The translations under genes were made by a program, and so were the position numbers. The notes below the pieces were generated by a model. It did no database searches. It was not told the DNA's origin and saw only the letters and a list, made by a program, of their open reading frames with translations. Source: a virus. Taken from it: a stretch of 64,000 bases of DNA. The DNA lies in IMG/VR virus record IMGVR_UViG_3300031992_000005, positions 288,001-352,000 of that record. One strand, 5' to 3'. Shown piece by piece: positions 1 to 58,794 of this stretch; the first letter of the stretch is position 1, and the number at the start of each line of letters is the position of its first letter.

Positions 1-70
1 TGATATTAATATTAGCATGAAATTCGAACATTACACAAGAGAGTTTAAGAATCTTTAATTTACAGGGTTT

Positions 71-95
71 GGGGTTAATGATTACAATTAACCCC
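71..95 (+). terminator. Stem-loop GGGGTTAAT(7-nt loop)ATTAACCCC, 22 nt upstream of the first gene
   Basis: Perfect 9-bp inverted repeat, 71-79 pairing with 87-95. No long T-run follows. Confidence 0.4.
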
Positions 96-117
96 TTACC
101 TCAATAAACTTAGAAAA

Positions 118-534
118 ATGATATTCAAACAAAAAACATATAGCCTTGGTGATAAGATTCACTTTACTAAATTTATTGGCATTTTAACTGGATTTAGCAA
201 TAAAGCTAAGAACTTACACTGGGCAGCCCCTGCTAAGAATATTCACACTTATCTGGATGACCTATATGGAATTATAAATGATTTTACAGATACTATAGCA
301 GAGGGGTACATGGGAATCCTAGGTAAAATGGGACCTAAGGATATAGTAGTCGTACCTTGTGAGGTAGGAGACGCTAGAACATTTATAGACGAACTCATAG
401 ACCAGACAAAAAAGTTTTATGAAGGTATCCCAGATTCAACTGAATTTAAGGGAATAACTAGTGAAACAGAAACCTTCATGCAGAACTGTCAAAAGTATCG
501 CTACTTGTTCAGCTTGTGCAGTAATGACTTCTAA
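118..534 (+). CDS. Dps/ferritin-like protein carrying N-terminal leader MIFKQKTYS
   Basis: 138-aa ORF. KAKNLHWAAPAKNIHTYLDDLYGIINDFTDTIAEGYMGILG parallels the Dps signature (..HW....nf..H..LD....DTMAE...LGG), including the His/His/Asp/Glu ferroxidase positions. Comparison made from memory of E. coli Dps. Confidence 0.55.
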   Translation: MIFKQKTYSLGDKIHFTKFIGILTGFSNKAKNLHWAAPAKNIHTYLDDLYGIINDFTDTIAEGYMGILGKMGPKDIVVVPCEVGDARTFIDELIDQTKKFYEGIPDSTEFKGITSETETFMQNCQKYRYLFSLCSNDF

Positions 535-540
535 GATAAA

Positions 541-1470
541 ATGATAATACTTAGACAAAAAGAGTTTTCCATTCTTCCCACATTAGATCTAGAGTATCAA
601 AGGTTTAGAAATAACCAGGCAATAAAAAAAGCCTATAAATCAAGGGATATAGATTGGGATAAAGAAACTTTAAAAAAACTTAAGGATCGAATTAAAAGAA
701 CTACCCCTATAAAAGAAAGTCCAGATCCTAATGCGCAAACTCAATTTGGAGGACCCTATTACACCAATAAATTTATCTTCGGTAAACTTAAAAGGGAAGA
801 TGTCATCCCTGGCCGTCAAACTCATTTAGGTGAAATCTTGGTTAATAAAGCTGACAAGGATAACCTAAGTGCAATATCACATGAATACGGGCATGCATTA
901 GATTATGCATCTACAGGAGGTAAAGATCGGTTCGTTGAAGGTATTTTATCAGGAGATGGGGTTGGTAATAAAAATTTCTTTGAAAGACCTTATAAGCAGC
1001 GCCTAAAATGTGAAAAACTTAATATAAAATCGGAAGGAACTGCTACAAAAAACGGGTTAAAAATTTTAAAGAAAATAGGTGCCAAACCAAAAGATATGGT
1101 TGAAGCTAGAAGAGCAGGAAAAGCTGCATTAGAATCTCATTTTAGAGCTAAGGAATTTGATCTAGCTAATAAGGCTATAGAAGACGGTTTAACTAACAAA
1201 GAGTATTTAAAACAATTACTTACTGATAGAAGACGACTCAGAAGAGATTATAGAAAAGCCGTTAGAGGCATTGAAATTTCCGGTAGAACAGGTGCAGAAA
1301 GACTTTACGATGCTTCTAAAATGTCTAAGGCTAGAAAAATGGGAAGAGCAGTAAAAGCAAATCTTCTAAAGAATGATACCCTCAGACATGCAGTAATAAA
1401 AGCAAATCGAACGGGAGAAAGAGCTAAAAAGAAAATAATAAAAAAAGCATTTAAACAACTAATTAAATAA
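541..1470 (+). CDS. Leader-bearing protein with HExxH zinc-metallopeptidase motif and strongly basic C-terminal third
   Basis: 309-aa ORF starting MIILRQKEFS. Contains AISHEYGHALDY (HExxH). The C-terminus is rich in K/R (RRRLRRDYRKAVRG...ERAKKKIIKKAFKQLIK). Confidence 0.55.
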   Translation: MIILRQKEFSILPTLDLEYQRFRNNQAIKKAYKSRDIDWDKETLKKLKDRIKRTTPIKESPDPNAQTQFGGPYYTNKFIFGKLKREDVIPGRQTHLGEILVNKADKDNLSAISHEYGHALDYASTGGKDRFVEGILSGDGVGNKNFFERPYKQRLKCEKLNIKSEGTATKNGLKILKKIGAKPKDMVEARRAGKAALESHFRAKEFDLANKAIEDGLTNKEYLKQLLTDRRRLRRDYRKAVRGIEISGRTGAERLYDASKMSKARKMGRAVKANLLKNDTLRHAVIKANRTGERAKKKIIKKAFKQLIK

Positions 1471-1874
1471 TGATAATTAGACAAAAAGAGTTCGGAAAAA
1501 AGACTGCGCGACTAACCAATAGGGATAAAAACTTTATTAAGAGTCTTGCTGAGGAAAAAGACCATAATAAAGTTTATAATAAACAGTCCTATAGAGCACT
1601 CCAGGGTTTTGGCGCTTTAACAGGTGGCGTAGGTGCAGCAGCTTTAATCAAAAAGCTAAGTAAAAGTAAAAAAGCCGGACTAATTGGTGGTGGAATCGCT
1701 AGCATTGGTACAGGTATTGCGCTAAATAAGCCTATTAAAGCTGCTATAGATAGAGCGAATTACAAGGAAGACGTTAAATACGTAAAGCGAAGAGGCGGTT
1801 TTATTTTCAGAGATCGTATCGATCGAGACCGTCTAATAGACAAACGTGAAAAAGAATTAAATCATCAAATATAG
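1470..1874 (+). CDS. Leader-bearing small protein with glycine-zipper hydrophobic segments
   Basis: 134-aa ORF starting MIIRQKEFG. TAATG overlap with the upstream stop. Contains GFGALTGGVGAAALI and GLIGGGIASIGTGIAL. Confidence 0.7.
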   Translation: MIIRQKEFGKKTARLTNRDKNFIKSLAEEKDHNKVYNKQSYRALQGFGALTGGVGAAALIKKLSKSKKAGLIGGGIASIGTGIALNKPIKAAIDRANYKEDVKYVKRRGGFIFRDRIDRDRLIDKREKELNHQI

Positions 1875-2116
1875 TTAGAGAAGCGAGGAAGGGGCTCACA
1901 AAGTAGGACTTAAAGGGGAAAAGCCGGATCGTTTGTGGTGTCAGTTGCCCGCATCAGTAAGTATCATAAAGTAAAAAATTTAGAAAAAAAATCACATTTT
2001 TAAATGAGATTTCTTTAAATAAAATTAGAACTAATTCTTACTTTAAAAAAAATGTCAAAGGAAAGTACGAATTAGAATTAAACATAACACAAATCCTTTG
2101 ACTCATTTAATGAAAT

Positions 2117-2629
2117 ATGTTGATTAAAAGAAGAGTTTATTTTTCGGCAATAGATGAAGAAACCGGAGAAGAAAGATTATTTAGTACTAACACTATTATG
2201 TCAGAAGAAGACTACCTTAAGACATTTTCTGATACATTAGAACAAAGAGAGTATGGTTTGAAATCTAAGGCACTAGCACTGGTTGCTCCTGGTGCTTATC
2301 AGGCAAAAGAAGCTGCTAAGTATGGATACGACGATGAAAATGAGTATAAGAAGGTAAGAGGCAAGTATGCATTAAAGGGTGCTTTTGCTCCTGGCGTTTC
2401 TACTTATATGAAGAAAGCGGCAGAAAAGATGCACAAAGAGGGTAAGTCTACAGAAGAGATTCGCGAATTTCTAGAAAATAAGGGCAAATACCATAACAAT
2501 GCTCGAGTAGCTGCAGGTATAGGTGAAGCACTTACTGGTAGTATGGGTGGAATTGGTCATGCTGCTGCTACGGCTGTAGGTGCATACGATGCACTGGAGA
2601 AGAGTAGAAAGAAATTCAATAAAGATTAA
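2117..2629 (+). CDS. Leader-bearing protein with Gly/Ala-rich C-terminal segment
   Basis: 170-aa ORF starting MLIKRRVYFS. C-terminal AAGIGEALTGSMGGIGHAAATAVGAY. Confidence 0.7.
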   Translation: MLIKRRVYFSAIDEETGEERLFSTNTIMSEEDYLKTFSDTLEQREYGLKSKALALVAPGAYQAKEAAKYGYDDENEYKKVRGKYALKGAFAPGVSTYMKKAAEKMHKEGKSTEEIREFLENKGKYHNNARVAAGIGEALTGSMGGIGHAAATAVGAYDALEKSRKKFNKD

Positions 2630-2704
2630 AATTGAATTAACCTAAGAATTACCCTTCTAGCTGAGTAATATATAGAATAACAGATCAATATTTAGTTTCA
2701 TTGG

Positions 2705-2741
2705 GGGAATTAGGGTACATGTAAGTTATATCCTAATTCCC
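2705..2741 (+). terminator. Stem-loop GGGAATTAGG(17-nt loop)CCTAATTCCC followed by TTT
   Basis: Perfect 10-bp inverted repeat, 2705-2714 pairing with 2732-2741. It lies between the 2117 gene and the 2757 gene. Confidence 0.5.
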
Positions 2742-2756
2742 TTTCACGAACAAAAA

Positions 2757-3143
2757 ATGGTAATATTAAGAAATAAATTTATTCATCTTCCTTGGACAAA
2801 AAATAATATTAATCTCTTTAAAAGAAAGGACAATCTTCTTTGTCATGCGAGAATAGGGAAGGACATTGATGGGGTTATTCTTACAAAGAATAATTTACTT
2901 GTTGGATATATTGCCTGGTCAAAAGAGTATATTATAGCTCTAGAAGTAATGCCTGAGTGGAGAAAACAAGGAATTGCAACATACTTAATTTCCTTATCTC
3001 CTGTTCAGAGACTTACCGTAAATAAAAATAACAATGAGGCTATAAAACTTTACCTAGATCTTGGATTCAGAGTAATTAAAGAAGATAATAGAATTCTCTA
3101 TATGGAAAACATTAACGCAGATAAAAAATGCGGAAAAAATTAA
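2757..3143 (+). CDS. GNAT-family N-acetyltransferase with leader-like N-terminus MVILRNKFIH
   Basis: 128-aa ORF. Acetyl-CoA motif A is WRKQGIATYLI (Q/R-x-x-G-x-A). Followed by NNEAIKLYLDLGFRVI, typical of the GNAT C-terminal strand-helix. Confidence 0.7.
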   Translation: MVILRNKFIHLPWTKNNINLFKRKDNLLCHARIGKDIDGVILTKNNLLVGYIAWSKEYIIALEVMPEWRKQGIATYLISLSPVQRLTVNKNNNEAIKLYLDLGFRVIKEDNRILYMENINADKKCGKN

Positions 3144-3254
3144 TAAAAACAGATAAATATATGGGCTTCTCAGATTGGGAAGACTCGGAAAAATATCATG
3201 TTACTTATGCGTGGTGTATTGTTCCAGGAACTACATGGAGAGATGACATAAAGA

Positions 3255-3437
3255 ATGGATTTATATATAAAAACGATGGAAGTAAATGATGGTTTTTCTA
3301 ACGGATTAGGGGGAGATACCTTAATAGAATCGTTCTATAATAAAATAAAATTAACTATGGGGGACTGGGAATTCCCACTAAAAAATAGCAAAGATTTAAA
3401 AGGAGTTGATAATTCCTCGAAAGAAAATAGGGAATAA
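3255..3437 (+). CDS. Small hypothetical protein, uncertain gene
   Basis: 60-aa ORF with no recognisable motif and no leader. It overlaps an alternative 43-codon ORF at 3161-3292. Confidence 0.3.
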   Translation: MDLYIKTMEVNDGFSNGLGGDTLIESFYNKIKLTMGDWEFPLKNSKDLKGVDNSSKENRE

Positions 3438-3501
3438 ATTACTCTAATACACTAAATACCAGATATAAATCTGGCAAAAAATATTAATAAAACAATTCAG
3501 G

Positions 3502-4488
3502 ATGTCATTAATAGTTAGATTGAAAAGAAAGATGTTTGCTTGGAATGACAATAAAGCAAACACTTATGAGTATTGCCTAAGAAATCCAGATAAGGATGAA
3601 AATGCCCAAAGAATAAAGGGGATGGAAGAAAAATATCCTGAAGAGACCGCTAGATTAAAAGAAAAATTGAAAGATCCTAACTTCACTACAAATAATACAA
3701 AAGCTAATAATAGTCAGAGGAATTCCTATTATGAAAATTATAAAGCGACAACTCCAGAAGGAATAAAGGTAGATAAGGATCTTAAAAGTGGTTTAGATAG
3801 TCTTAATAAACAGGCAAGAAAAGAAAATAAACAACTACTAAAAGCTATTCAAAGAAAAAAGAAAATAGCTAATATTGCAGGTATTGGAGGAGGAATTGCT
3901 GCAGCAGCAGGTTTAGGATATGGCCTAAAGAAAGCTCATGATAATAAAAAAGCTTGGGAAGAAGAGAAAAAGAATATTAAAGTAACTGATCCTTCTGGGA
4001 AAAAATTGACCCAAGAAGAACAAGACTATTTCAGAGGCAAGGAAACAAATAGTCAAAAAAATAGCCGCAAAGGTACTTCAAGTAGAATTCTTGGAGCTAC
4101 GGGAGCCGCAGGAAGCATGCTCGGAGTTGTTAGAGGCAAGAAAATAATAGATGGAGCTAATGATACAATACTTAGGCACATGGACCGTATTAGTAAAGAA
4201 CAAAACCTAGTTAATAGTGTTAAAGGTAAAATCAATGCTGATGTTGCTGCAGTCCAAAATAAATATATGCAAAAAATAGCTAATAAATCTATCAGCAAAC
4301 GAGCAGCTGCTGAACGTTTACAAAAAAGAGTTTTGAAAAAGGTAAATAAAAGTATGATAGGCGGTGTTTCTGCAGGATTATTAGGCGGTGCAGCATTAGC
4401 AGCTATGTATAATACTAATAAAAAGATTAAGAACGAGCGTCTTAATTCTAAAAGAAGATTGGCAGCTTTACAGAAAAGTGAAGCATAA
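3502..4488 (+). CDS. Leader-bearing glycine-zipper protein, paralog 1
   Basis: 328-aa ORF starting MSLIVRLKRKMFA. Contains IAGIGGGIAAAAGLGYGLKKAHDNKKAWEEEKK and a second Gly-rich segment near the C-terminus. Paralogous to 4504-5346. Confidence 0.8.
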   Translation: MSLIVRLKRKMFAWNDNKANTYEYCLRNPDKDENAQRIKGMEEKYPEETARLKEKLKDPNFTTNNTKANNSQRNSYYENYKATTPEGIKVDKDLKSGLDSLNKQARKENKQLLKAIQRKKKIANIAGIGGGIAAAAGLGYGLKKAHDNKKAWEEEKKNIKVTDPSGKKLTQEEQDYFRGKETNSQKNSRKGTSSRILGATGAAGSMLGVVRGKKIIDGANDTILRHMDRISKEQNLVNSVKGKINADVAAVQNKYMQKIANKSISKRAAAERLQKRVLKKVNKSMIGGVSAGLLGGAALAAMYNTNKKIKNERLNSKRRLAALQKSEA

Positions 4489-4503
4489 AAGAAAATTAAC
4501 ATT

Positions 4504-5346
4504 ATGTCATTAATAGTTAGATTGAAAAGAAAGTTGTTTGCTGCTTGGAATGAAAATCTCAGAACCGTATACGAACATGCATTAGATAACCAGGATAAAG
4601 AAGCTGAAAGAGAATATAGGTCATTGTTAGAGGAGAGATTCCCTAAACAAACATCTGGTATAAAAGATACGAGGAGATTCGTTAAAGACGTAAAAGACTC
4701 TTTTAGAGACATAGATAAGGCAGCAAGAAAAAAGAATAAGCGACTACTCAAAGTGGCTAAAGCAGCTAAAATTGCAGGTATTGGAGGAGGAATTGCAGCT
4801 GGAGCGGGATTAGCATATGGCTTAAAGAAAGCTCATGATAATAAAAAAGCTTGGGAAGAAGAGAAAAAAGGAATAACGGATCCCAATAAAATAAATTCAC
4901 TGAAAGAGAGCAAAGATCAGAAAAAAAATAGACAACTGGGTGAAGGGGCTATTGTAACTGCAGGAACACTTGGTGGTGCATTAACAGGTGCAGCTATCGT
5001 AGGTAGACAAAAAGCTAGAGCAGATAAGCTATATGATAGAAAATTCGATATCTACGGAAAGAAGATGCTCGAACGACATAAAAAATTTGATAGTTATGCA
5101 AGATCTTCACCATATGGCGTTGATAGGATAATAGATGCTGACAGCAAATTTGTGAATAAGCTATCTCAAGATTGGCGAAGTAAAGGTCTAGCTCTTGATC
5201 GACTAAATAGAAAGATAGGTAAAAAAGCTCCTGGTAAAGTACTAAAAGCTGCAGGATTAGGTTTAGCTGGAGGTGCTGCATTGGCTACTATGTATGGTAT
5301 TAATCAAAAAGTTGCCAATGAAAAGAAAAACTCCACGAACAAATAA
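4504..5346 (+). CDS. Leader-bearing glycine-zipper protein, paralog 2
   Basis: 280-aa ORF starting MSLIVRLKRKLFA. Contains IAGIGGGIAAGAGLAYGLKKAHDNKKAWEEEKK. Shares near-identical nucleotide blocks with 3502-4488. Confidence 0.8.
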   Translation: MSLIVRLKRKLFAAWNENLRTVYEHALDNQDKEAEREYRSLLEERFPKQTSGIKDTRRFVKDVKDSFRDIDKAARKKNKRLLKVAKAAKIAGIGGGIAAGAGLAYGLKKAHDNKKAWEEEKKGITDPNKINSLKESKDQKKNRQLGEGAIVTAGTLGGALTGAAIVGRQKARADKLYDRKFDIYGKKMLERHKKFDSYARSSPYGVDRIIDADSKFVNKLSQDWRSKGLALDRLNRKIGKKAPGKVLKAAGLGLAGGAALATMYGINQKVANEKKNSTNK

Positions 5347-5384
5347 AAAATTGTACAAAAAATAAACAATAAATACACTAAATT

Positions 5385-5798
5385 ATGATTATACTAAGAA
5401 CTAAAACTTATTCACGATTAGAAGATGAAGATTATCGTGATAAAATGTATGAAAAGAAGAGAGGCGTTAAGCACGCAAAGGCAACCGGTGCACTGGTAGG
5501 AGCCGGATTTGGAGCAAGTCTAGGTGGAACACTTGGTAGTGCAGCAGGTGGTAGAGGTGCACTAATTGGTGCCGGTATAGGAGGAGTTGCCGGAGGTGTA
5601 GGTGGTTATCATCTAGGCAGGAAAGAAAAAGATAGAGTTGAAAAAGAAGTTGCCAGAAAGCTAGATCGTTATGAAAATGCTAACGAAAAGGATAGAGCTT
5701 ATTTGAGAAGAAAAGAGGAAAAGGATGAAGAGATGGCACTTCGTAAACAGCAGGTAGCTGCTCAGACTCAAATGGCGATGAATTCTTATAGATGGTAA
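5385..5798 (+). CDS. Leader-bearing glycine-zipper protein
   Basis: 137-aa ORF starting MIILRTKTYS. Contains GALVGAGFGASLGGTLGSAAGGRGALIGAGIGGVAGGVGGY followed by a charged coiled-coil-like tail. Confidence 0.75.
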   Translation: MIILRTKTYSRLEDEDYRDKMYEKKRGVKHAKATGALVGAGFGASLGGTLGSAAGGRGALIGAGIGGVAGGVGGYHLGRKEKDRVEKEVARKLDRYENANEKDRAYLRRKEEKDEEMALRKQQVAAQTQMAMNSYRW

Positions 5799-5835
5799 AT
5801 TTAAAACAAACTAATTAAGAAAAATTAAAGGTAAA

Positions 5836-5867
5836 GTAAGAGTAGGCGTCTAAAGTACCCTACTCTT
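5836..5867 (+). terminator. Stem-loop TAAGAGTAGG(12-nt loop)CCTACTCTTA
   Basis: Perfect 10-bp inverted repeat in the 101-nt gap after the 5385 gene. No T-run follows. Confidence 0.45.
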
Positions 5868-5899
5868 ATCCCAAACAAAATTAATCAAAATTAACGAAA

Positions 5900-6655
5900 A
5901 TGAATATAGATGTTTCATTGTTACCTAGCGGAGGCATTGGGTATAATTTTCCCAGTGTGGTAATTAAGCCTCTCAATTTCTTAGAGATTACGCAATACTT
6001 ATCTAACCTACCAGGGGAGGATGATCCGTTAGGACGTTACCTATTCGATATGAACATGCTGAGGGATGATGATCCTAATATAGAAAATTGTTATATTATG
6101 GATATAGACTTTCTCATCTTCTATAAAAAGTTATGTACTGTCAGTGAAGACTTATCTTATCAAATTGAAGTTAGTTGTCCACATTGCGGTGCTACAATAA
6201 AGAAGACCATTTCCTTTGATAAGGATGTTCATTTCAAACAGATTGACCCTAATATTATGAATGGGGCCAAGATAGAACTAAATGGTCATCATTACGATAC
6301 TATTGTTCCTACATACAAAGACTTTATGAAAGTTTTTTCACTTTATCTTAGGTATAGAAAAATACAAGATCTAAAGATGATTAAAACGATTGCTCTTATT
6401 AAAGACTTTGATGTACAGGGAAATCAGATCGAAGATGACGTATTACACGCAAAGCATAACGACATTACCCTTCTTATGGCTCTAAGAGACCTCTATTATG
6501 ATAGAGTGGAACCAGTAGAGTTATTTTGTCCTAAATGCGATAAGCCCGAAGAAAGGAGGAGTGTGACAGTGAGTCTTGAAGGTCTCATTGTCGATTTCTT
6601 TCGAGAGCTCTATGTCAATAGCCCAATTGATGGAACTAAAATTCTTTTTAAATAA
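5900..6655 (+). CDS. Putative tail assembly chaperone-position protein with Cys4 zinc-ribbon
   Basis: 251-aa ORF two genes upstream of the tape measure. Has CPHCG ... CPKCD cysteine pairs. The functional call rests on gene position only. Confidence 0.4.
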   Translation: MNIDVSLLPSGGIGYNFPSVVIKPLNFLEITQYLSNLPGEDDPLGRYLFDMNMLRDDDPNIENCYIMDIDFLIFYKKLCTVSEDLSYQIEVSCPHCGATIKKTISFDKDVHFKQIDPNIMNGAKIELNGHHYDTIVPTYKDFMKVFSLYLRYRKIQDLKMIKTIALIKDFDVQGNQIEDDVLHAKHNDITLLMALRDLYYDRVEPVELFCPKCDKPEERRSVTVSLEGLIVDFFRELYVNSPIDGTKILFK

Positions 6656-6656
6656 A

Positions 6657-6893
6657 ATGTTAAAAGCGGATAATATAGAATATTATACGTTAGATGCATT
6701 AATTAAACTTAGAAAAGTCTATGACGAATTCTTAAGCAACAGTGATGGTGTAGATCCAGATTTTCCACTCATGAAGTTTGGAAATGGTGAAAAGAAAATC
6801 GCAGGTGTTAATAAGGCAAAGATAGAATTAGAGAACCAAGAACGTGGAATAGAGGAGCCACTGGGCATGAATAATTTCCTCAATAAACGATAA
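6657..6893 (+). CDS. Small protein immediately upstream of the tape measure, possible second chaperone ORF
   Basis: The ORF frame is open from 6576. The most plausible independent start is the ATG at 6657, 1 nt after the upstream TAA (6653-6655). The stop lies 2 nt before the tape-measure ATG. Confidence 0.5.
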   Translation: MLKADNIEYYTLDALIKLRKVYDEFLSNSDGVDPDFPLMKFGNGEKKIAGVNKAKIELENQERGIEEPLGMNNFLNKR

Positions 6894-6895
6894 AT

Positions 6896-9800
6896 ATGGC
6901 TAATAACAATCAAAATCAGCCAAAGAAAGACGAATCCTACGCTAACTATCAACAGGCAGGTCAGCAATTGCTTCAAATGAATGCTGAAAGACAGAAGAAC
7001 ATAGCTCTTCAGAGACAGGCTAATGCCAATCAGCAAGGGACTACTGAATTACTGTCACAAGCGGGCGCAATGGCAACTATGGGAGGAGGTGGTGCAGCAA
7101 TAAATCCACAGACTCAAGCTATGTTAAGGAAATATGGCTATGGTCAGCCTAAGGTACAAAGGGCTCAAGGTAGAGAAGTAAAAATTGTTCCGAATAATAT
7201 TGTTATTAATAACAACTATAACACAGTATCCAATAACAATGTTATTCCTCAACAAGGTGGTGGGAATGACGCTGCTAATAGTCAGAGTAGATTCAAGACT
7301 TGGATTAGTGGGATTTTTGCTAGACAGAAAGAGGAAACTGCTAAGAGAGACCGAGAATATCAAAAGCAAGAGTGGGCTATCGGTAAGAGCACTAATAGAA
7401 TGCTCAGACAGATGACTGATGCTGGCCGTAATGTAGCAAATGCAATAAATCCTAGAAATTTAGGTTCTTCTTTAGGTGGTCAAATAAAAACACTGCTCTT
7501 CCTATTTGGTATGAGATTTTTGTCTAAGAACTGGACTAAAATCTTGGATATAACTACTACCATAACTGGATATATAAAAGAAGGATTGGCCTTTTTTGGT
7601 ATAGGTGATGAAACTAGAGTAAAAGCCCTAGCAGCACAAGGTAAGGATTTTCGAGGCAGATTTATTTCATTTTTCACTGAACCTGCTAGAGCCAGGGATG
7701 GAAAAACTACAGTAATCAGTCTCATGAGGGAAATGATACAAAGCTTTGGAGATTACATTAAGACTTTCATTGAAGGTCAGATGGAACTTCGAGGTATCGC
7801 CATGAGAAGTATCAAATTCCCAAAAATAGACTTTAAACCTGCAGATTCGTCTGGTTGGAATCCATTAGCTAGTGCTATAAATAGTGCAATATCTAGTTTA
7901 GGTGATTCGTTGACAAATGCTCTTTCTGGCATGGGAACCTACATTGGTGATATATTTACTGCCTTTGTAAATCCTAAAGCTGGTGCAAGAAGAGCAATTG
8001 TTTCTAATGTTAGAAACTTAGGTACAGAAAATTCAAGAAAAAATCAGGAATACTATAGAAATGTAAATAGATTTACTGCAGTCAATGTATGGGATGGCGA
8101 TAAAGCAAATGGTTGGGCAGTAAATGCTGGAGACGCAGCGAATGAATTAGTAGGAGAAGATTATTATGATGCAGCGAATCATAGATACTTAAAGGGTAGT
8201 AGAAGATACGCACTCTTGGAGAATGCTCTAGAAGGTAATAGGTTAAGAAATACAGCTGGTTCTCAAATTAGCCAAGGTCGAGACTTGTTAGGTGCTATTA
8301 ATAATGCGAAAACACATGGTAGAATAGATACTGCTAGATTTGCAAGTGGTGTATCTAGACTCTATGAAGCAGCTAAGGAAAATGAAAATGGCGTAGTAGT
8401 TGACCAGGAATTTGTAAATACACTGATTGGAGAGAAACTAAAGAGAGATCTTACCTCAACTAGGGACTTAGTACCTGTTAAGATGAAGTATGTCGTAGCT
8501 GACCTAGATGCTTCAGAATACGGAAATCGAGGTTCAGAGTTATATAAGGAGGCTGCTGGAACTTCAGATGACTTGTTAGTTGGAAAAGTTCCATTATTAG
8601 GTTGGGGATTAAATGTAGCTACCGCAGGTATACAAAAATTAGGGAATTCACTTGCTACTCACCTTAATTCTAAAAAACTAATATTAGTTCCTGAATCAGA
8701 TCCTAGACCTGCAGTTACTAAGATTAAGGATGTTTGGGGTGCTAATACAACTGGTGATGTAAAAGACCTAGGAAAACCTGTCAGTACTTATTACCGATTG
8801 ACTCCAACTGCCATAGAGAAGATAATGCAACACCGCATTAGTAAGGACGCAGATATAGATAACTATGAAACATTCTTACCAGGTGTTGATAAGTTCTTAG
8901 TTCGTGCAGGTGGTGGAGAAGCAGCAGTTAATAAAAAATGGAGTGAAAGCCAGAAGAAAAACCTTCAGTTTACTCAAGAGCGTTTTGGAGGTAATCAGCG
9001 AGATTATGATATTACAAGCGGTTTTAATGAAATAAGACGTATTGAACTTGCTGAACAAAAATTACGATCTAAGATGGAGAATCATCCATTTATGGGTTAT
9101 GTTAATCGTGCTGTTAATAATGCAGAAAAACTGGTTAATAAAGGAGTTGAAGGTGTTAATAACGTTGTAAGGTGGTTTGGTACAACAGATCTTGGTAGAA
9201 ATCTTGCAACTGAGAGAGTTACTAATAAAACTGTTAGAGCTAATGCCCAAAGAATAATGGATTTCCTCATTAATGAGGGTGGATTTACTCCAGATCAAGC
9301 GATAGGAATTCTTGGAAACTTGTATATAGAATCAGGCAGATCCCTCAGTCCACGAGCAATAAATCCCAACGATAGTGGAAAAAGGTCTGTAGGCCTAGCT
9401 CAATGGAGAGACGATCGTGATAAGGCTCTTCAACAATTTGCTTCCAGTCGAGGAAAATCTTGGGATGATTTCGATACTCAGCTAGAGTTTCTTCTATGGG
9501 AACTTGGGAACAAAGAAAGAGCTGCAAACAATGCCGTTAGAAAATCGAATAATTTCCAGGAAGCTGCATATGCTTGGAGACTTTTTGAGAGATATGATGG
9601 CTGGGATACTGGCGGAAGAACTACGGGCTTGCATAAAGAACGACAGAAGGCCGCTTGGTCTATGTATAATATGCTCAAGAACGATGGATACTTTGAAGGA
9701 AAGAGATTAAGTGTTAATGGTTCTACAAGTAATGACGGCAGTGATCTAATGAATTCAAATATACCAGAAGGCTCTATCTTCATATCTACTGCACGCCCTG

Positions 9801-12490
9801 GAGCAAATACTTCGGGCGGATACAATTATTATAATTCACCTGGATCGTTCTCTATGCCTTCTACAGCAGCTGCTCCAAGCAATAATGGCTATTACTTACC
9901 ATTACAGAATAACTCTATGGTTATAACTTCACCTTTTGGTAATCGTGCAGATCCCGTTAATAAAGGTAAAGTACAATTTCATAAAGGTATCGATATTCGA
10001 GCTAATAATGAGAATATTTACGCCACAGAGAACGGAGGTAGAGTTGTTAAGGTAAACAATAATGCTGGCTCTGGTGGTGGAAAGTCTGTAACAGTAGAGT
10101 ATGATCGTGGTAACGGTAATAAAATACAAACCACCTATAGACACTTATCTAGCATTGGTGTACGAGAAGGTGAAGGTGTTCAGGCAGGTCAACAATTAGG
10201 TGTATCAGGAAATACTGGTCGTAGATCAACAGCACCACACTTACATTTCGAAGTTAGTACTATAGATAGTAACGGCAATTCACAAAAGGTAGATCCTACT
10301 GCATATCTTGCAGATATAAGTCAGGCAGGAGGATTATCTTTGAATATGTCTTATAAAAACGGAAGTGGAGGTATAGTAGTAAATGGTAGTTCTGAATCTA
10401 TTTTCGAAAATGATACTATTGAACGCCCTTTCGGTAAAGAAGATATCAAAACTGAAAAAGAACTAAAGCAACAAGAGGTAAAATCAGCCGTTGCTAGAGA
10501 AGCAATGAGGGTTTGGGAAAAATATCCGGAACTAAAAGAAGCTTTTGATGATTATGATCATTTCGAAAATTATTGGATTACAAAAGGTCCTAGTAAAAGA
10601 AAAAAGCTAATGAAAGGCTATATGGCTTATCATAATCATAAAAAAGCCATTGATGCAGACCCGAACCTATCTAAGTTAGGCGTACATCATTTTGCTGAAA
10701 TATGGGCTAGTAAATCAACAGAACCTTGGGAAGTGATAAACAGAGCTGAACAAGGTCGACAGTTTGAAAAGATAGAAGAAGGTGCTGATGCTTTTGCAAA
10801 GAAAATAGAAGAACAATCGAAAGACACTCTTTGGATAAGAAATGATTATAAGAGAGGTTCGGACAAAAAATGGAAAGATGAAGTAGATGCTATAGGAGAA
10901 AGCGGGGCCTACAAGAGACTTTATAAGGATATTCTAGAGGGAAGAAAAGGCTCTGGTTATGATGATAAGATAGCAGCATCTATTCTATTTGGAGATGATT
11001 ATAATAAATTACGAGAAGAGCTAAACGATACTAACACAGCTATTACTAATGCAAAGTACAGAGGCATTAATCACGACAAGGAAATTACGAAGAAAGACTT
11101 CCTGCAAAAAAAGTTAAGAAATTTTGAACAATCTGCATATAACTATACAACGCTAGCAAATAATGAAAGTAAATCTAAGAGAAAACAACTCTTTTCACAA
11201 AATCAAAAAATAGCCCAAATAAAAAATCAAATTTTAAGTTATGAGGAGGAGAGAAAAGCTATTACTGCAAAAGCTGAAAGACAACTACTTAATTGGCCTA
11301 ACATGACTGCAGAAGAGATTAATGAGCTAGAATTAAATACTGTAGCAGATATTGCTTGGATCAATGATAAGCAGGATAGTCTCCGACAACAACTATATAA
11401 GATAATGGATGGGCTAGGTGAAGATCAAGAGGAGTTTAAAATCAAGCTAGAGCAAGAAATTAAATTACAAACAAAGACAGGAGAAGAACTTTGGGGTGAA
11501 TTTAATAATATTATGGATAGCGGTAAATCTCAGATAGAGGCATTAGGTGAAATGATGCGTGAGTATGGAAAAGAAGTTCTTGAAAAAATGAGGAATGAAT
11601 TAGCAAAAACTATAACATTCTTCCAAGATCATGAACTTACTGAAAACATGTTCGATCCTAATTATAATCCTACTGCACAATTAACCGCCCTTGAAAAAAT
11701 ACAAGAACAGAAGAAAGCTTTAGTCGAAGAATATGGATCTTGGACAAAAGTTCTAGACGATAAAAGAATTCCACTTGAACTTGCGGAAAAAAATATAAAA
11801 CAAAACGCTGCAAATGTTCAAGTTACTATTCAAGGTAATCAAGCTCTATCTGAAAATGGATTGGCTGAACCTATAAAAAATGCAGATGAACTCAATACAA
11901 AAGCACAGGGAGTAATTAATAAAGTTGATAAGCTCTCTAATAGAAAAACCACTATGGAAATACTTCCAAAAGGTTGGGGAGGAACTGGGTATGATGAAAA
12001 TTATACAAGTAATAAGCCAGATGAAAAACCAGTCTTTACGTCTAAATATTATAATTCCGGATACATTGATGAGAAAACTGGTAAGATAAATGGTCCTCTG
12101 ACAGATTCCTCAGGATTTAATAAAAAGAGAAAAACGCCAGTCAAACTATCTAGTGGTAAAACTGTAGGAGGCTATACTGAACCGGGTAATCCACTAACCC
12201 CTTCTGGATATGTCCTTCACAAAGATGAGTTTGTAGTTAATTCTAAGTCTCTGAAAAACCCATTGATTAGTGATATTGTCCGAGCAATTGATGTTTATCA
12301 GGGAACTAATAAGGACTCAGTTAAGACACCAATCTCTAAAGAATCGATATTAACTGCAGAATCTTCAAAAATTACTGCAATTAACACCGCAGAAACAAAT
12401 GCTAGATTAGAGCAGTTAACTCAAGCTGTATTAAATTTAGGAAGAAGTGGAGGAACACCAAAAACTAAAGTTCCTTCTTATACACCATGA
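6896..12490 (+). CDS. Tail tape-measure-like protein with phage-tail-lysozyme-like and M23 peptidase domains
   Basis: 1864-aa ORF. Lysozyme-like domain at about 9241-9680: GILGNLYIESG...VGLAQWRDDR...QLEFLLWEL. M23 motifs at about 9924-10310: FHKGIDI ... TYRHL ... GNTGRRSTAPHLHFEV. The C-terminal half is long and coiled-coil-like, rich in E/K/Q. Positioned directly upstream of the baseplate genes. Confidence 0.75.
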   Translation: MANNNQNQPKKDESYANYQQAGQQLLQMNAERQKNIALQRQANANQQGTTELLSQAGAMATMGGGGAAINPQTQAMLRKYGYGQPKVQRAQGREVKIVPNNIVINNNYNTVSNNNVIPQQGGGNDAANSQSRFKTWISGIFARQKEETAKRDREYQKQEWAIGKSTNRMLRQMTDAGRNVANAINPRNLGSSLGGQIKTLLFLFGMRFLSKNWTKILDITTTITGYIKEGLAFFGIGDETRVKALAAQGKDFRGRFISFFTEPARARDGKTTVISLMREMIQSFGDYIKTFIEGQMELRGIAMRSIKFPKIDFKPADSSGWNPLASAINSAISSLGDSLTNALSGMGTYIGDIFTAFVNPKAGARRAIVSNVRNLGTENSRKNQEYYRNVNRFTAVNVWDGDKANGWAVNAGDAANELVGEDYYDAANHRYLKGSRRYALLENALEGNRLRNTAGSQISQGRDLLGAINNAKTHGRIDTARFASGVSRLYEAAKENENGVVVDQEFVNTLIGEKLKRDLTSTRDLVPVKMKYVVADLDASEYGNRGSELYKEAAGTSDDLLVGKVPLLGWGLNVATAGIQKLGNSLATHLNSKKLILVPESDPRPAVTKIKDVWGANTTGDVKDLGKPVSTYYRLTPTAIEKIMQHRISKDADIDNYETFLPGVDKFLVRAGGGEAAVNKKWSESQKKNLQFTQERFGGNQRDYDITSGFNEIRRIELAEQKLRSKMENHPFMGYVNRAVNNAEKLVNKGVEGVNNVVRWFGTTDLGRNLATERVTNKTVRANAQRIMDFLINEGGFTPDQAIGILGNLYIESGRSLSPRAINPNDSGKRSVGLAQWRDDRDKALQQFASSRGKSWDDFDTQLEFLLWELGNKERAANNAVRKSNNFQEAAYAWRLFERYDGWDTGGRTTGLHKERQKAAWSMYNMLKNDGYFEGKRLSVNGSTSNDGSDLMNSNIPEGSIFISTARPGANTSGGYNYYNSPGSFSMPSTAAAPSNNGYYLPLQNNSMVITSPFGNRADPVNKGKVQFHKGIDIRANNENIYATENGGRVVKVNNNAGSGGGKSVTVEYDRGNGNKIQTTYRHLSSIGVREGEGVQAGQQLGVSGNTGRRSTAPHLHFEVSTIDSNGNSQKVDPTAYLADISQAGGLSLNMSYKNGSGGIVVNGSSESIFENDTIERPFGKEDIKTEKELKQQEVKSAVAREAMRVWEKYPELKEAFDDYDHFENYWITKGPSKRKKLMKGYMAYHNHKKAIDADPNLSKLGVHHFAEIWASKSTEPWEVINRAEQGRQFEKIEEGADAFAKKIEEQSKDTLWIRNDYKRGSDKKWKDEVDAIGESGAYKRLYKDILEGRKGSGYDDKIAASILFGDDYNKLREELNDTNTAITNAKYRGINHDKEITKKDFLQKKLRNFEQSAYNYTTLANNESKSKRKQLFSQNQKIAQIKNQILSYEEERKAITAKAERQLLNWPNMTAEEINELELNTVADIAWINDKQDSLRQQLYKIMDGLGEDQEEFKIKLEQEIKLQTKTGEELWGEFNNIMDSGKSQIEALGEMMREYGKEVLEKMRNELAKTITFFQDHELTENMFDPNYNPTAQLTALEKIQEQKKALVEEYGSWTKVLDDKRIPLELAEKNIKQNAANVQVTIQGNQALSENGLAEPIKNADELNTKAQGVINKVDKLSNRKTTMEILPKGWGGTGYDENYTSNKPDEKPVFTSKYYNSGYIDEKTGKINGPLTDSSGFNKKRKTPVKLSSGKTVGGYTEPGNPLTPSGYVLHKDEFVVNSKSLKNPLISDIVRAIDVYQGTNKDSVKTPISKESILTAESSKITAINTAETNARLEQLTQAVLNLGRSGGTPKTKVPSYTP

Positions 12491-15859: not shown

Positions 15860-16849
15860 ATGCTATTAAATAATATAGAAGTAAAAATACTATCTACTGC
15901 CAAATTAATAGATGTATATAACAATAATTTTCCTGAGGATTTTTTAATGAAAAACGTCATTTACTGTATACATAATGAAGTAAATGGAAAAAATTATATA
16001 GGGCAAACTATAAAAGTTAAAGATAGATTTAGTAGAACTTATGTCGGTCACTTTAAGGACTATGATAGGTTTATTAATGGAGAAATTAATGAAACTCGAG
16101 CTCTATATAGGGCTTGGAAAAAATACGGACTAGAATCGTTCACTGTTTTTGTTATTGATGTAGGTTCTAACAGAGAGGAATTAAATAAAAAGGAAATTTA
16201 CTGGATAAAAACACTACATACTTGCGTTAAAGATTCAGAATGTTTTGGATATAACTTAACATGGGGTGCTGATGATATGAGCGTTACTTGTAGGGAATCT
16301 ATTCAAAGATCTCTGGAGACAAGGAAGAATATGTATGGAGATTATTTTCCCAAATGCCACACTCAAGAAGCCTATAAAAAAGGAGACGAGACTAAAAAAG
16401 ATAGGTATGGTTATACTGGATTTATCAATGCATTTACGCCAGAAGCTAATTCAAAAAGAAAGCAAACTAATCTAGAAAGATATGGAACTTTACATGGGCC
16501 TAATATGTCTAAAGAGGCTATCAATAAGATGGTAGAAAAGAAAATAGATAAATATGGAGACCCTATGGGAGTTTGCAATACTCCAGAGAATCGAGAAAAA
16601 GCAAAAAAGAATTCAAGAATTACAAGAATATTTAATTCAATCTCTCGGAACTTAAATCTTCTTAAAGAAAAAGGTATCGACATTCAAAGTTGGGAACAGT
16701 ATAGCTCGTATATGATCCATAGATATCATAGTGTCAATCGTACAAACCTTCATCTAGAAAAGATAATGGAAAATATTACAGATCTTAGGTCAGATAGAAG
16801 GTGGTCAACTACTTATGAAAAGATATTTGTAGAATCTATAAACAAGTAA
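15860..16849 (+). CDS. GIY-YIG homing endonuclease, free-standing mobile gene
   Basis: 329-aa ORF. VIYCIHNEVNGKNYIGQT...RFS...H...LYRAWKKYGLESF...NKKEIYWIKTL matches the GIY-(10)-YIG / R / E core. The C-terminal half has repeated x-R/K-YG modules (KDRYGYTG, LERYGTLHG, IDKYGDPMG). Confidence 0.85.
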   Translation: MLLNNIEVKILSTAKLIDVYNNNFPEDFLMKNVIYCIHNEVNGKNYIGQTIKVKDRFSRTYVGHFKDYDRFINGEINETRALYRAWKKYGLESFTVFVIDVGSNREELNKKEIYWIKTLHTCVKDSECFGYNLTWGADDMSVTCRESIQRSLETRKNMYGDYFPKCHTQEAYKKGDETKKDRYGYTGFINAFTPEANSKRKQTNLERYGTLHGPNMSKEAINKMVEKKIDKYGDPMGVCNTPENREKAKKNSRITRIFNSISRNLNLLKEKGIDIQSWEQYSSYMIHRYHSVNRTNLHLEKIMENITDLRSDRRWSTTYEKIFVESINK

Positions 16850-58131: not shown

Positions 58132-58149
58132 TCCCTAGGTAATTTTTTT
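58118..58149. terminator. Bidirectional terminator hairpin between convergent genes
   Basis: ACCTAGGGA (58118-58126) pairs with TCCCTAGGT (58132-58140) around a 5-nt loop. Followed by AATTTTTTT on the plus strand, with an A-run upstream. Both convergent ORFs end inside or next to the hairpin. Confidence 0.7.
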
Positions 58150-58757: not shown

Positions 58758-58794
58758 ATTCTTACACATATGTAGAGAATATGTAACACTAACC

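Follow-up and report, generated by a model that had tools for sequence, protein, structure and literature searches.

Tagged genes of the window

The window, a stretch of 64,000 nucleotides of viral DNA, begins in the 3' end of a tail tube gene and carries, ahead of putative chaperone and tape measure genes, eight genes whose products all start with a short leader of the consensus M-[I/L/V]2-3-[R/K]-x-[K/R]-x-[F/Y]↓[S/A/G], the arrow marking the proposed cut between P1 and P1'. The eight N-termini quoted in the initial annotation are exact, and each starts at the first ATG of its open reading frame. For their predicted role these genes are called cargo genes in the following list, in which the window position equals the L003 position minus 9883 and the scores in bits refer to a position matrix (PSSM) trained on 27 leaders from relatives, none of them from the window.

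1-58, + strand: 3' end of the tail tube gene, without leader, given as context (L003 9348-9941, 197 aa; matches PHROG 45 and 4542, tail tube)
118-534, + strand: cargo gene 1, Dps-like/DUF5856 protein (Pfam DUF5856, E 9e-9; PHROG 858); leader MIFKQKTY↓S at 118-141, 15.8 bits
541-1470, + strand: cargo gene 2, basic 309-aa protein with the HExxH motif HEYGH; leader MIILRQKEF↓S at 541-567, 28.4 bits
1470-1874, + strand: cargo gene 3, basic 134-aa glycine-zipper protein (Gly-zipper segments); leader MIIRQKEF↓G at 1470-1493, 16.4 bits
2117-2629, + strand: cargo gene 4, 170-aa protein; leader MLIKRRVYF↓S at 2117-2143, 15.4 bits
2757-3143, + strand: cargo gene 5, GNAT acetyltransferase (Pfam Acetyltransf_7/10/1); degenerate leader MVILRNKF↓I at 2757-2780, 6.2 bits
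3128-3289 and 3255-3437, + strand: two small ORFs without leader between genes 5 and 6 (94% and 72% identity to L009; -0.5 bits or lower)
3502-4488, + strand: cargo gene 6, basic 328-aa glycine-zipper protein (PHROG 2990); long-type leader MSLIVRLKRKMF↓A at 3502-3537, 11.1 bits
4504-5346, + strand: cargo gene 7, paralogue of gene 6; leader MSLIVRLKRKLF↓A at 4504-4539, 14.0 bits
5385-5798, + strand: cargo gene 8, 137-aa glycine-zipper protein (Pfam Gly-zipper_Omp, E 2e-6); leader MIILRTKTY↓S at 5385-5411, 21.9 bits
5900-6893, + strand: putative tail assembly chaperone pair (251 aa, then 78-105 aa), without leader, assigned by its position directly 5' of the tape measure gene
6896-12490, + strand: tape-measure-like protein with lysozyme and M23 peptidase domains (PHROG and Pfam matches), without leader

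The cargo genes form a single run, as initially described, but they are not strictly consecutive, since the two small leaderless ORFs lie between genes 5 and 6. Similarly, their mature parts are mostly unrelated, with the exception of the paralogous products of genes 6 and 7 (33% identity, E 6e-23) and of the glycine-zipper segments that recur in five of the eight proteins. The product of gene 2 has a net charge of +35 and found no match in family searches including PHROG and Pfam, and its HEYGHALD motif is kept in an L009 orthologue of 44% identity. The leader of the GNAT protein deviates in being shorter by one residue and in having Ile at P1'; its homologue in L120 starts with MILLRDKY↓T. 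For the chaperone pair, the family search gave nothing beyond a weak Zn-ribbon match. A Shine-Dalgarno-like core precedes only 8 of 49 genes, and this sparse use, together with a Dps gene common to crAss-like phages that infect Bacteroides, suggests a host from the Bacteroidota; the host is probably not a Firmicute.

Plasticity of the cassette and portability of the leader

The cargo cassette is hypervariable between near-identical relatives. The flanking tube, Dps-like and chaperone genes of the window and of L009 are 99% identical (99.6% for the chaperone pair), whereas within the L009 cassette four genes, including genes 4 and 6, are missing, one is duplicated (gene 8, as two diverged copies) and the others are 44-69% identical, gene 3 marking the upper end of this range. 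The internal-protein loci of T-even phages have also been described as hypervariable among close relatives (PMC3012670, PMC9026906), which matches the behaviour of this cassette.

The leader, in turn, comes and goes independently of the domain that follows it. Dps homologues of crAss-like phages are 55% identical to cargo gene 1 and lack the leader, which is present in 28 of 120 members of the Dps-like family, all of them among the closest matches, and the GNAT domain likewise has relatives without it. On these comparisons the leader is portable, having apparently been gained as a whole unit by unrelated domains, and the proposal of a portable signal in the initial annotation is borne out by the leaderless Dps homologues of other phages.

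Leader sequence and boundary

Within the window the leader is confined to the eight genes, in agreement with the original claim: seven of them score 11.1-28.4 bits and the degenerate GNAT leader somewhat lower, as listed, while the remaining 48 called genes reach at most 4.2 bits, and none of 20,251 internal positions exceeds 12 bits in the PSSM scan. The consensus obtained from 233 unique leaders is M-I-I-L-R-x-K-x-[FY]↓[SAGT]. The length from M to P1 is nine residues in 195 of the 233 (range 8-12), P1 is F or Y in 97%, and the positions P9 to P1' are rich in information, which amounts to only 0.2-0.4 bit from P2' onward, a drop that places the boundary exactly at the proposed cut. Cleavage of the phiKZ/SPN3US type, after (A/S/G)-X-E and with mostly long propeptides, does not describe leaders of this length and P1 residue.

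A similarity at the 5' end of coding sequences might also stem from a recombination site or from an RNA motif that acts in regulation or translation initiation, the peptide likeness being a by-product. The leaders are AT-rich, and some pairs are near-identical as DNA, namely those at 3502 and 4504 (97% over the 39-nt leader, with a further patch of 110 nt at 91%) and those at 541 and 1470 (87% over 31 nt). However, synonymous codons are used freely at conserved residues: Leu at P6 is encoded by five codons from both families (CTN and TTR), Ser at P1' by TCN 22 times and AGY 10 times, and Phe by TTC in 22 and TTT in 31 cases, which argues for selection on the peptide. Neither a conserved motif nor an enrichment of the T4 late-promoter consensus was found upstream of the leader genes, an Rfam search gave no match, and the same peptide motif lies in the interior of the scaffold, protease and capsid proteins described below, so that we give a nucleic acid element hardly any credence.

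Sec, Tat and lipoprotein signals consist of an n-region, a hydrophobic core of at least about seven residues and then a signal-peptidase site, lipobox or twin-arginine. A secretion or membrane-targeting function of this kind would fit the N-terminal position of the leader, its hydrophobic and basic residues and the glycine-zipper or membrane-like segments of many cargo proteins. In contrast to such signals, the leader has just 2-4 aliphatic residues, followed rather than preceded by basic ones, within a total of nine, it contains neither a lipobox cysteine nor a twin arginine, and its motif also occurs inside cytoplasmic scaffold and capsid proteins. A signal peptide was rejected on this basis and appears extremely improbable.

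Head genes: candidate protease, scaffold-like protein and capsid protein

The evidence on head genes is drawn from 96-97% identical relatives rather than from the window's own contig. There, a protein of predicted prohead-protease fold is encoded immediately upstream of a zinc-ribbon core protein, an acidic repeat scaffold and the major capsid protein. The last was recognized by Foldseek matches to major capsid proteins (E 4e-16, from a model of low pLDDT, 53) and by a gp23-like C-terminal motif.

The core motif of the leader, [KR]x[FY][SAGT], occurs 17 times in the very acidic scaffold-like protein against 0.9 expected, a count reached in 0 of 2000 shuffles, and 6 times in the 284-aa core protein against 0.5 expected. 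In the protease, four of four sites fall within a disordered linker, and in the capsid protein three of three lie within residues 32-62, the mature part of 420 residues having none. Among 40 aligned homologues with 29 distinct N-termini, two of the capsid sites are invariant or near-invariant, namely EYAKMF↓S and NLLQKTF↓SGYAETPLL. The motif is not enriched in the sheath, tube, tape measure (5 observed, 5.0 expected) and giant proteins, and the distribution of the simple [FY]S dipeptide agrees with that of the core motif. The motif is therefore concentrated at the very proteins that a prohead protease would be expected to cut.

The candidate protease is a 428-aa protein in which H51, S144 and the KxFS sites of the linker are invariant; distant homologues retain F/Y-S sites in the linker. 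Its AF2 model (pLDDT 76), compared with BFVD by Foldseek, matches an entry named 'Peptidase U9, T4 prohead protease' (E 1.9e-7) as well as other prohead and capsid-maturation proteases, and in a weak hhalign alignment (E 0.008-0.07) H51 falls on the catalytic His85 of T4 gp21. Pfam Peptidase_S77/U9 gave no match, nor did the PDB by sequence or by Foldseek. We regard the protein as a putative Ser/His prohead protease of the gp21 type, a class with the HK97/herpes assemblin fold. The initial annotation had proposed to look elsewhere in the genome for a prohead protease, and this candidate is encoded beside the scaffold and capsid genes of relatives.

The location of the tagged genes could also be taken to mean that the leader is a tag for the tail lumen or for tail assembly, by which cargo is loaded into the tail tube or baseplate together with the tape measure protein and not into the head. 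The eight window genes do have the tube gene on one side and the chaperone and tape measure genes on the other, two further tagged genes adjoin the sheath gene, and the PHROG search matched the protein encoded at 5385 to the glycine-zipper regions of tape measure proteins. Yet the motif accumulates in the scaffold-like protein, the linker of the putative prohead protease and the capsid propeptide and not in tape measure, sheath or tube, and about 18 further tagged genes flank the head genes of the 96-97% identical relatives, which makes a tail tag quite improbable.

The initial annotation had named, as a second precedent, processing by Prp, in which a host or phage DUF464 cysteine protease would trim an L27-like extension, as it does for capsid and scaffold proteins of 80alpha. 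Prp is a Cys-His protease, usually host-encoded, and acts on the motif MLxx(D/N)LQ(F/L)F'A(S/H)KK; long L27 forms are reported from Firmicutes, Tenericutes and Fusobacteria (PMC9405229). The leader shares with this system a short N-terminal peptide of 8-12 residues whose final, aromatic residue precedes a small one (F↓A, compare ...LQFF↓A; PMC9405229). It lacks the (D/N)LQ(F/L)F core, however, and has conserved basic residues instead, while the capsid protein site is internal (residue 61) rather than N-terminal, and the candidate protease has a predicted HK97/T4 prohead-protease fold. No Prp/DUF464 domain was detected in 43 other window proteins or in the precomputed Pfam lists of flanking loci, and the suggested Bacteroidota host lies outside the groups with long L27. 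This precedent thus finds no support here, and Prp-type processing is considered very unlikely.

A closer relative of the preferred reading holds that the leader does no more than mark where the prohead protease cuts, perhaps in a step of activation or release, and has no sorting role, the cargo reaching the prohead by other means. Since the internal sites of scaffold, protease and capsid protein need just [KR]x[FY]↓[SAGT], cleavage alone would suffice to explain the conservation from P3 to P1'. However, the N-terminal leaders are far more constrained, with M at P9, I at P8 and P7, L or F at P6, R or K at P5 and their nearly uniform length, unrelated domains gain the whole unit, and the equivalent 10 residues of T4 hold separable targeting and processing determinants (PMC9026906). 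We therefore judge a pure cleavage site to be unlikely, though worth keeping in mind.

Clade and spread of the leader

The window phage, read as a huge myovirus, is a member of an uncultured, T4-like clade of huge phages from animal guts, with contigs of up to about 420 kb, and its identity as a crAss-like phage was rejected. Homologues of its capsid protein and protease are found on contigs of 310-427 kb; a search of the GenBank phage collection found no cultured relative. The set of eight leaders initially described is real but forms part of a far larger one, with at least 28 leader genes around the head and tail modules of close relatives, so that the tagged genes, rather than standing in one block of eight ahead of the tail genes, are scattered through the whole head-tail module. 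Immediately ahead of the window lies a ninth leader gene (MIKFKKKEF↓T), and the same area of a relative holds a tenth (MIILRQKEY↓A). In L011 and L012, homologues of cargo gene 4 that begin with that gene's leader lie upstream of the head genes.

A scan of IMG/VR for the leader returned 105 loci, mostly on contigs of 200-401 kb, 89 of which contain at least two leader ORFs and 42 of which carry homologues of the sheath, tube, capsid protein or protease; leader matches include contigs of 340-401 kb, and the leader is a trait of the clade. Cellular genomes totalling 596 Gbp gave 60 leader matches, 50 of them away from the start of an ORF.

Proposed mechanism and comparison with known systems

From the motif and its distribution, the modelled fold of the protease and the analogy to T4, it is likely that the leader is a propeptide and targeting tag resembling the capsid-targeting sequence (CTS) of T4, cut by a gp21-like protease with an unusual preference for an aromatic P1. 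We infer the cleavage, targeting, packaging and ejection of the tagged proteins as follows. Proteins starting with M-I-I-L-R-x-K-x-F/Y would join the prohead core during assembly, where the basic, hydrophobic leader probably binds the acidic scaffold. The protease would then cut after the aromatic residue in [L/I/F]-[R/K]-x-[K/R]-x-[F/Y]↓[S/A/G/T], so that removal of the 8-12-residue leader frees the cargo, while the scaffold would be cut to small fragments and the capsid protein would shed about 61 residues. The trimmed cargo, which in the window presumably comprises the Dps-like, HExxH and GNAT proteins besides numerous basic proteins with glycine zippers, would remain beside the DNA inside the head, and infection would probably carry it into the host.

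The initial reading of a sorting or cleavage tag for virion cargo with the T4 CTS as precedent is supported by the motif at the scaffold, in the protease linker and in the N-terminal 62 residues of the capsid protein, by the neighbouring protein of predicted prohead-protease fold, by the leaderless Dps homologues and by the hypervariable cassette. In T4, too, a peptide of about 10 residues from Met1, removed by gp21, is common to unrelated, mostly basic proteins (IPI/II/III and Alt), and the gene order protease-scaffold-capsid protein equals gp21-gp22-gp23 (PMC9026906, PMC3012670). In both systems the tag ends at a motif of the phage's own prohead protease, which in T4 also degrades the scaffold core, trims the capsid N-terminus and cuts itself (here suggested by motif statistics only), and enzymes are among the cargo, Alt in T4 and the GNAT and HExxH proteins here. 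The sequences are unrelated, however: the T4 protease cuts after Glu in L/I-x-E, whereas the present leader reads MIILRxKx[FY]↓S and has an aromatic P1 in place of Glu. Since the consensus is not that of T4, the leader would be an analogue or variant rather than the same signal. The systems also differ in scale, as T4 has about 4-5 tagged genes and this clade about 28 or more per genome. Here, moreover, the tagged genes are placed within the head-tail module, and the candidate protease, which lacks the Pfam S77/U9 match, has double the length of its T4 counterpart and a helical domain at its C-terminus. The system would thus amount to T4-like capsid tagging on a far larger scale, with the same nine-residue tag on dozens of unrelated proteins predicted to be packaged.

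A second comparison is offered by the giant myoviruses phiKZ (gp175) and SPN3US (gp245), where, as predicted here, one prohead protease serves many head proteins. It cuts itself and removes N-terminal propeptides from ejection proteins, acting after Glu in A/S/G-X-E (PMC10052503). Unlike the uniform tag described here, these propeptides mostly span 111-254 residues (two have 20-24) and share no portable unit, and SPN3US has 9 known substrates. A chymotrypsin-like P1-aromatic specificity has, to our knowledge, not been described for any characterised prohead protease.

In a bolder form of the proposal, to which we would give slightly less than an even chance, the leader serves as a universal tag for capsid loading throughout an abundant, uncultured clade of gut phages of 350-420 kb, and is read by a chymotrypsin-like, P1-aromatic prohead protease. 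It would define an 'ejectome' of about 30 proteins per genome, kept in rapidly shuffling cassettes, which would be injected together with the DNA and act as effectors of host takeover or anti-defence. If this is true, the ejectome could be read from sequence alone, including enzymes, DNA-binding proteins and membrane-active glycine-zipper proteins. The Jug (jumbo gut) phages resemble the window phage in being huge and T4-like; they measure 360-402 kb, come from the guts of humans and animals and have relatives in ruminants. Their G+C content is 27-30%, compared with 31-38% in the window, and the paper describing them does not mention an N-terminal leader (PMC12880540).

The scaffold sites and the leaders have only P3, P1 and P1' in common, and the extra conservation from P9 to P5 could serve a purpose other than capsid targeting. 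Many tagged genes stand among tail genes, so that some of their products may be located in the tail, and several resemble glycine-zipper segments of tape measure proteins.

The leader and the genes that carry it

The initial annotation had described eight consecutive genes whose otherwise unrelated products share one N-terminal leader, and the ORF listing reproduced these genes and their N-termini exactly as quoted (gene numbers are start positions):

Gene 118, + strand, N-terminus MIFKQKTYS
Gene 541, + strand, N-terminus MIILRQKEFS
Gene 1470, + strand, N-terminus MIIRQKEFG
Gene 2117, + strand, N-terminus MLIKRRVYFS
Gene 2757, + strand, N-terminus MVILRNKFIH
Gene 3502, + strand, N-terminus MSLIVRLKRKMFA
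Gene 4504, + strand, N-terminus MSLIVRLKRKLFA
Gene 5385, + strand, N-terminus MIILRTKTYS

To avoid circularity, a position matrix covering P8 to P1' (P1|P1' being the predicted cut junction) was trained on 27 leaders that all came from related contigs. Seven of the eight genes scored 11.1-28.4 bits and the GNAT gene 6.2 bits; the remaining 48 called genes of the window peaked at 4.2 bits, and none of the 20,251 internal positions scored in the window exceeded 12 bits. The genes are not strictly consecutive, since the run is broken by two small leaderless ORFs (3128-3289 and 3255-3437), both of which are kept in a relative. The domain calls (DUF5856/Dps-like, GNAT and glycine zipper) were all correct, the HEYGH motif of the gene 541 product is kept in a 44%-identical orthologue, and an NCBIfam search of the cargo proteins returned nothing new. 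The mature parts had been called unrelated, which does not hold for the products of 3502 and 4504, which are paralogues (33% identity, E 6e-23), nor for the glycine-zipper segments common to five of the eight. Most of the cargo proteins are strongly basic, with net charges of up to +35.

Consensus and selection on the peptide

Of 233 unique leaders, 195 have exactly nine residues counted from M through P1, and from P2' onward the information content is only 0.2-0.4 bit. Longer leaders of 11-12 residues form another subtype, φ-[RK]-L-K-R-K-x-[FY]|[GA], which is found mostly on glycine-zipper proteins, those of 3502 and 4504 among them.

Leader consensus from 233 unique leaders
P9: M
P8: I (0.75)
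P7: I/K/V
P6: L/F
P5: R (0.80) / K (0.19)
P4: Q/N/R
P3: K (0.91)
P2: any residue
P1: F (0.70) / Y (0.27)
P1': S (0.61), A, G or T

At the conserved residues synonymous codons vary freely: Leu is encoded by five codons from both families, Ser by AGY as well as TCN, and Phe by TTT and TTC. Selection therefore acts on the peptide and not on the RNA, which excludes an RNA-level element as the origin of the conservation. A signal peptide is excluded by the length and layout of the leader. The T4 late-promoter consensus TATAAATA was not enriched (13 observed vs 15.6 expected), promoter and terminator counts in window positions 1-7000 were at chance level, the window contains no tRNA genes or Rfam families, and the G+C-rich spacer 1872-1975 folded no better than its shuffles (z -1.1). 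G+C-rich hairpins do occur in spacers bounding genes of the cassette, the run of leader genes between the tail tube gene and a chaperone-like pair, at 66-100 (after the tube gene), ~2705-2741 (before the GNAT gene) and ~5838-5866 (after the last cargo gene); they carry no T-runs and were not called as terminators.

Spread of the leader in a huge-phage clade

The eight genes are preceded by the tail tube gene and a second large structural protein and followed by the chaperone-like pair, a tape-measure-like protein of 1864 aa that contains lysozyme and M23 domains and, further 3', by very large ORFs and genes for baseplate and gp5-like proteins. The proposed picture of one eight-gene set just upstream of the tail genes is not supported: the set is much larger and interspersed with structural genes throughout the head-tail module. 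Directly 5' of the window a 535-aa protein starts with MIKFKKKEF|T, and the relative encodes there a 184-aa protein that starts with MIILRQKEY|A. Relatives with 96-97% identity have ten leader genes 3' of the gene for the capsid protein, besides seven or eight 5' of the head genes, so that a stretch of about 47 kb holds 28 tagged genes or more. Interspersed among them are leaderless structural genes encoding the capsid protein, a 360-aa protein, the sheath, a 716-aa protein and the tube. This arrangement of tagged genes recurs in more distant relatives, whose capsid protein is 80% and whose protease is 71% identical.

A DNA pattern encoding M-I-I-L-R-x-K-x-[FY]-S was run over IMG/VR and over 596 Gbp of bacterial and archaeal genomes. 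IMG/VR yielded 105 loci, mostly on contigs of 200-401 kb; 89 of them have at least two leader ORFs and 42 also encode homologues of sheath, tube, capsid protein, protease or window cargo genes. In the bacterial and archaeal genomes the pattern matched 60 times, each time singly and at scattered places; 50 of these matches do not lie at an ORF start, and the exceptions look like mis-binned phage contigs. One contig binned as 'uncultured Mycoplasmatota bacterium' (CASEGV010000001.1, 370,971 bp; loci L133 and L142) has several leader ORFs and is probably a mis-binned huge-phage genome, and a 5-kb 'Bacillales' contig (L164) has leader ORFs together with a chaperone homologue.

The Dps-like protein has identical copies on an ENA contig of 185 kb and on others longer than 200 kb, gut samples from animals and humans yielded homologues of the capsid protein and protease on 310-427 kb contigs, and no capsid protein homologue was found in the GenBank phage collection. 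The window is therefore a member of an uncultured huge-phage clade. The T4-like 'Jug' phages of the gut and the ruminant phages akin to them (PMC12880540) are possible relatives of this clade. A crAss-like origin, prompted by the giant ORFs and by DNA matches of the Dps-like gene to crAss-like DpsA genes (70% identity), was rejected, as the window has sheath, tube, tape measure and baseplate genes and its contigs measure at least 185 kb, in a clade that extends to about 420 kb. A Shine-Dalgarno-like core is present in only 8 of 49 genes, which, together with a gene held in common with Bacteroides-infecting crAss-like phages, suggests a Bacteroidota host, probably one of the Bacteroidales.

Probable head-maturation genes and the predicted cleavage motif

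In the 96-97% identical relatives, a 428-aa protein, a 284-aa zinc-ribbon protein, a 924-aa acidic repeat protein and a 483-aa protein are encoded in an order that mirrors gp21-gp22-gp23 of T4. The 428-aa protein (P0121) is probably the prohead protease. Its AF2 model (pLDDT 76) matches 'Peptidase U9, T4 prohead protease' in BFVD (E 1.9e-7) as well as prohead core serine proteases and capsid maturation proteases, and a weak hhalign match (E 0.008-0.07) aligns H51 with the catalytic His85 of gp21; the tie to gp21 comes from these two comparisons only, with no match in Pfam, PHROGs or the PDB (phmmer and Foldseek). H51 (LTHRGRS) and S144 (LTCSLVV) are invariant, as are K-x-F-S, KVKx[FY]-S and LKxKEF-S sites in a disordered linker. 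A profile search against 1.84 billion representative proteins found only 233 relatives, and the distant ones, likewise without a Pfam match, retain both motifs (His and Ser) along with the F/Y-S sites of the linker.

The major capsid protein is probably the 483-aa product, judging from a C-terminal motif in common with T4 gp23 and from Foldseek matches to major capsid proteins (E 4e-16 and 5e-9) and a gp23 (4e-4), which, given a poor AF2 model (pLDDT 53), count as supporting evidence only; a profile search against the PDB found nothing. The scaffold-like 924-aa protein (positions 7199-9973 of L011, a relative's locus) has 248 D+E vs 58 K+R and three tandem repeats of ~113 aa, each with three full [KR]x[FY]|[ST] sites and additional F-S and F-T pairs.

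Occurrence of the core motif [KR]-x-[FY]-[SAGT] in head proteins
Scaffold-like protein, 924 aa: 17 observed, 0.9 expected; 17 reached in 0 of 2000 shuffles
Core protein, 284 aa: 6 observed, 0.5 expected; N-terminus MKRLKIFS..PRRKIFS
Protease, 428 aa: 4 observed, 1.3 expected; every site in the linker
Capsid protein, 483 aa: 3 observed, 1.3 expected; every site in residues 32-62, the mature 420 residues being free of the motif

The motif is not enriched in the sheath, tube, tape measure or giant ORFs. Among 40 aligned capsid protein homologues with 29 distinct N-termini, the sites EYAKMF|S and NL[LFMV]QKTF|SGYAETPLL are invariant or nearly so, and cuts at the core-motif sites of the scaffold would give fragments of 11-165 residues. 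This concentration in head-assembly proteins argues against the leader being a tail-lumen tag, although individual proteins may have that role. The suggested parallel to the capsid-targeting sequence (CTS) of T4 is strengthened, as the motif is enriched in the scaffold, the protease linker and the capsid N-terminus, and a gp21-like fold is encoded beside them. The second suggested precedent, Prp processing of L27, shares with the leader the aromatic-small junction and nothing else: the Prp/L27 consensus MLxx(D/N)LQ(F/L)F'A(S/H)KK (PMC9405229) is unmatched, no DUF464 domain was found in the window, and the likely host phylum lacks a long L27. It is possible that the leader serves cleavage without sorting. 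However, P9-P5 are far more constrained in the N-terminal leaders than at internal sites, where P3, P1 and P1' are conserved, which argues for a role beyond cleavage.

Proposed route and comparison with known systems

We infer every step beyond the motif statistics. A gp21-like Ser/His prohead protease would recognise φ-[R/K]-x-[K/R]-x-[F/Y]|[S/A/G/T], and the full nine-residue leader would recruit its proteins to the prohead core. Direct binding of the leader to the scaffold is plausible, since it would bring together a basic, hydrophobic peptide and an extremely acidic protein; in T4, internal proteins co-purify with gp22, and targeting and processing determinants of the CTS lie at different positions (PMC9026906). 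Removal of the leader would then coincide with fragmentation of the scaffold, with trimming of the capsid protein by about 61 residues and with self-cleavage of the protease in its linker. Once mature, the basic/glycine-zipper proteins and the enzymes would stay with the DNA and would probably be ejected. Predicted mature N-termini, starting at P1', are SILPTLDLEYQR for gene 541 and SGYAETPLL... for the capsid protein, and MIILRQKEFSILPT, NLLQKTFSGYAE and KAKEFSSV would be candidate substrate peptides of the protease.

Such a system would work much like CTS and gp21 in T4 and the broad proteolysis of phiKZ and SPN3US (PMC10052503), from which it is set apart by its motif, the aromatic P1 and the uniform nine-residue tag. 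About 30 genes per genome are tagged here, whereas T4 has 4-5 CTS proteins and SPN3US has 9 substrates known so far. No description of the leader was found in the literature on crassviruses, Jug phages and jumbo phages, and the crassvirus structural atlas does not mention it.

If the proposal is correct, the N-terminal rule M-I-I-L-R-x-K-x-F/Y|S would list packaged and probably injected proteins across an abundant uncultured clade of gut huge phages from sequence alone, which is otherwise possible only via virion proteomics on a cultured phage. These proteins would form a large, fast-evolving effector arsenal that includes an acetyltransferase, an HExxH protein and Dps-like proteins, analogous to those internal proteins of T4 that counter host restriction. 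The predicted aromatic-P1 specificity would distinguish the prohead protease from those of T4, phiKZ and HK97, and the leader would be a candidate tag for loading foreign proteins into these capsids.

Portability of the leader and plasticity of the cassette

The Dps-like domain is 55% identical to crAss-like DpsA proteins, which are longer by some 10 residues and have other starts (MEYGLLTPIE..., MFDEILLTPMGS...). In a set of 120 family members, MIxFKQKxY|S heads the proteins closest to that of the window, many of them on contigs of 274-385 kb, whereas crAss-type members (contigs of 92-105 kb) are without the leader. The crAss-like homologues (L001 11885-12331; L002 3848-4294; proteins P0422-P0507) have a conserved N-terminal extension of their own, M..(D/E).LLTP....

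L009, a relative's locus, shares 99% identity with the window in its tube, Dps-like and chaperone genes, yet its cassette is different: the HExxH and 1470 orthologues are 44% and 69% identical, genes 2117, 2757, 3502 and 4504 are missing, and the 5385 type is duplicated. In other relatives a 2117 homologue lies 5' of the head genes. Between the paralogues 3502 and 4504, the 39-nt leader (3502-3540 vs 4504-4542) shows 97% DNA identity and a 110-nt internal patch (3862-3971 vs 4759-4868) 91%, despite only 33% protein identity, which suggests gene conversion or mosaic recombination inside the cassette.

Other features of the window and its upstream side

Directly 5' of the tape measure gene, ORFs 5900-6655 and 6576/6657-6893 overlap or abut in different frames, where a tail-chaperone frameshift pair would sit; the upstream ORF weakly matches a zinc ribbon. 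A GIY-YIG homing endonuclease gene (15860-16849; PHROG 314/7168, Pfam GIY-YIG) lies within the baseplate block. The giant ORFs 26390-33559, 36049-40995 and 41001-49652 (2389, 1648 and 2883 aa), 3' of the baseplate genes, have no Pfam family, no leader and no excess of the cleavage motif. An N-acetylmuramoyl-L-alanine amidase (Amidase_3; 50767-51360) is located among the distal tail genes and an IMPDH/GMP-reductase-like gene (62953-63987) at the window's end (both positions deduced; the Pfam run gave families for the 43-protein set as a whole). On the minus strand, 58128-62920 holds eight tandem genes of about 180-230 aa each, four of which (60025-62298) are clear paralogues with 36-47% identity. 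Upstream of the window, between leader genes and a sheath-like gene, the overlapping locus L003 (2601-7211) encodes a 1536-aa protein with about 25 tandem 'ELHD(D/E)STITKI(E/Q)PSPEEV' units.
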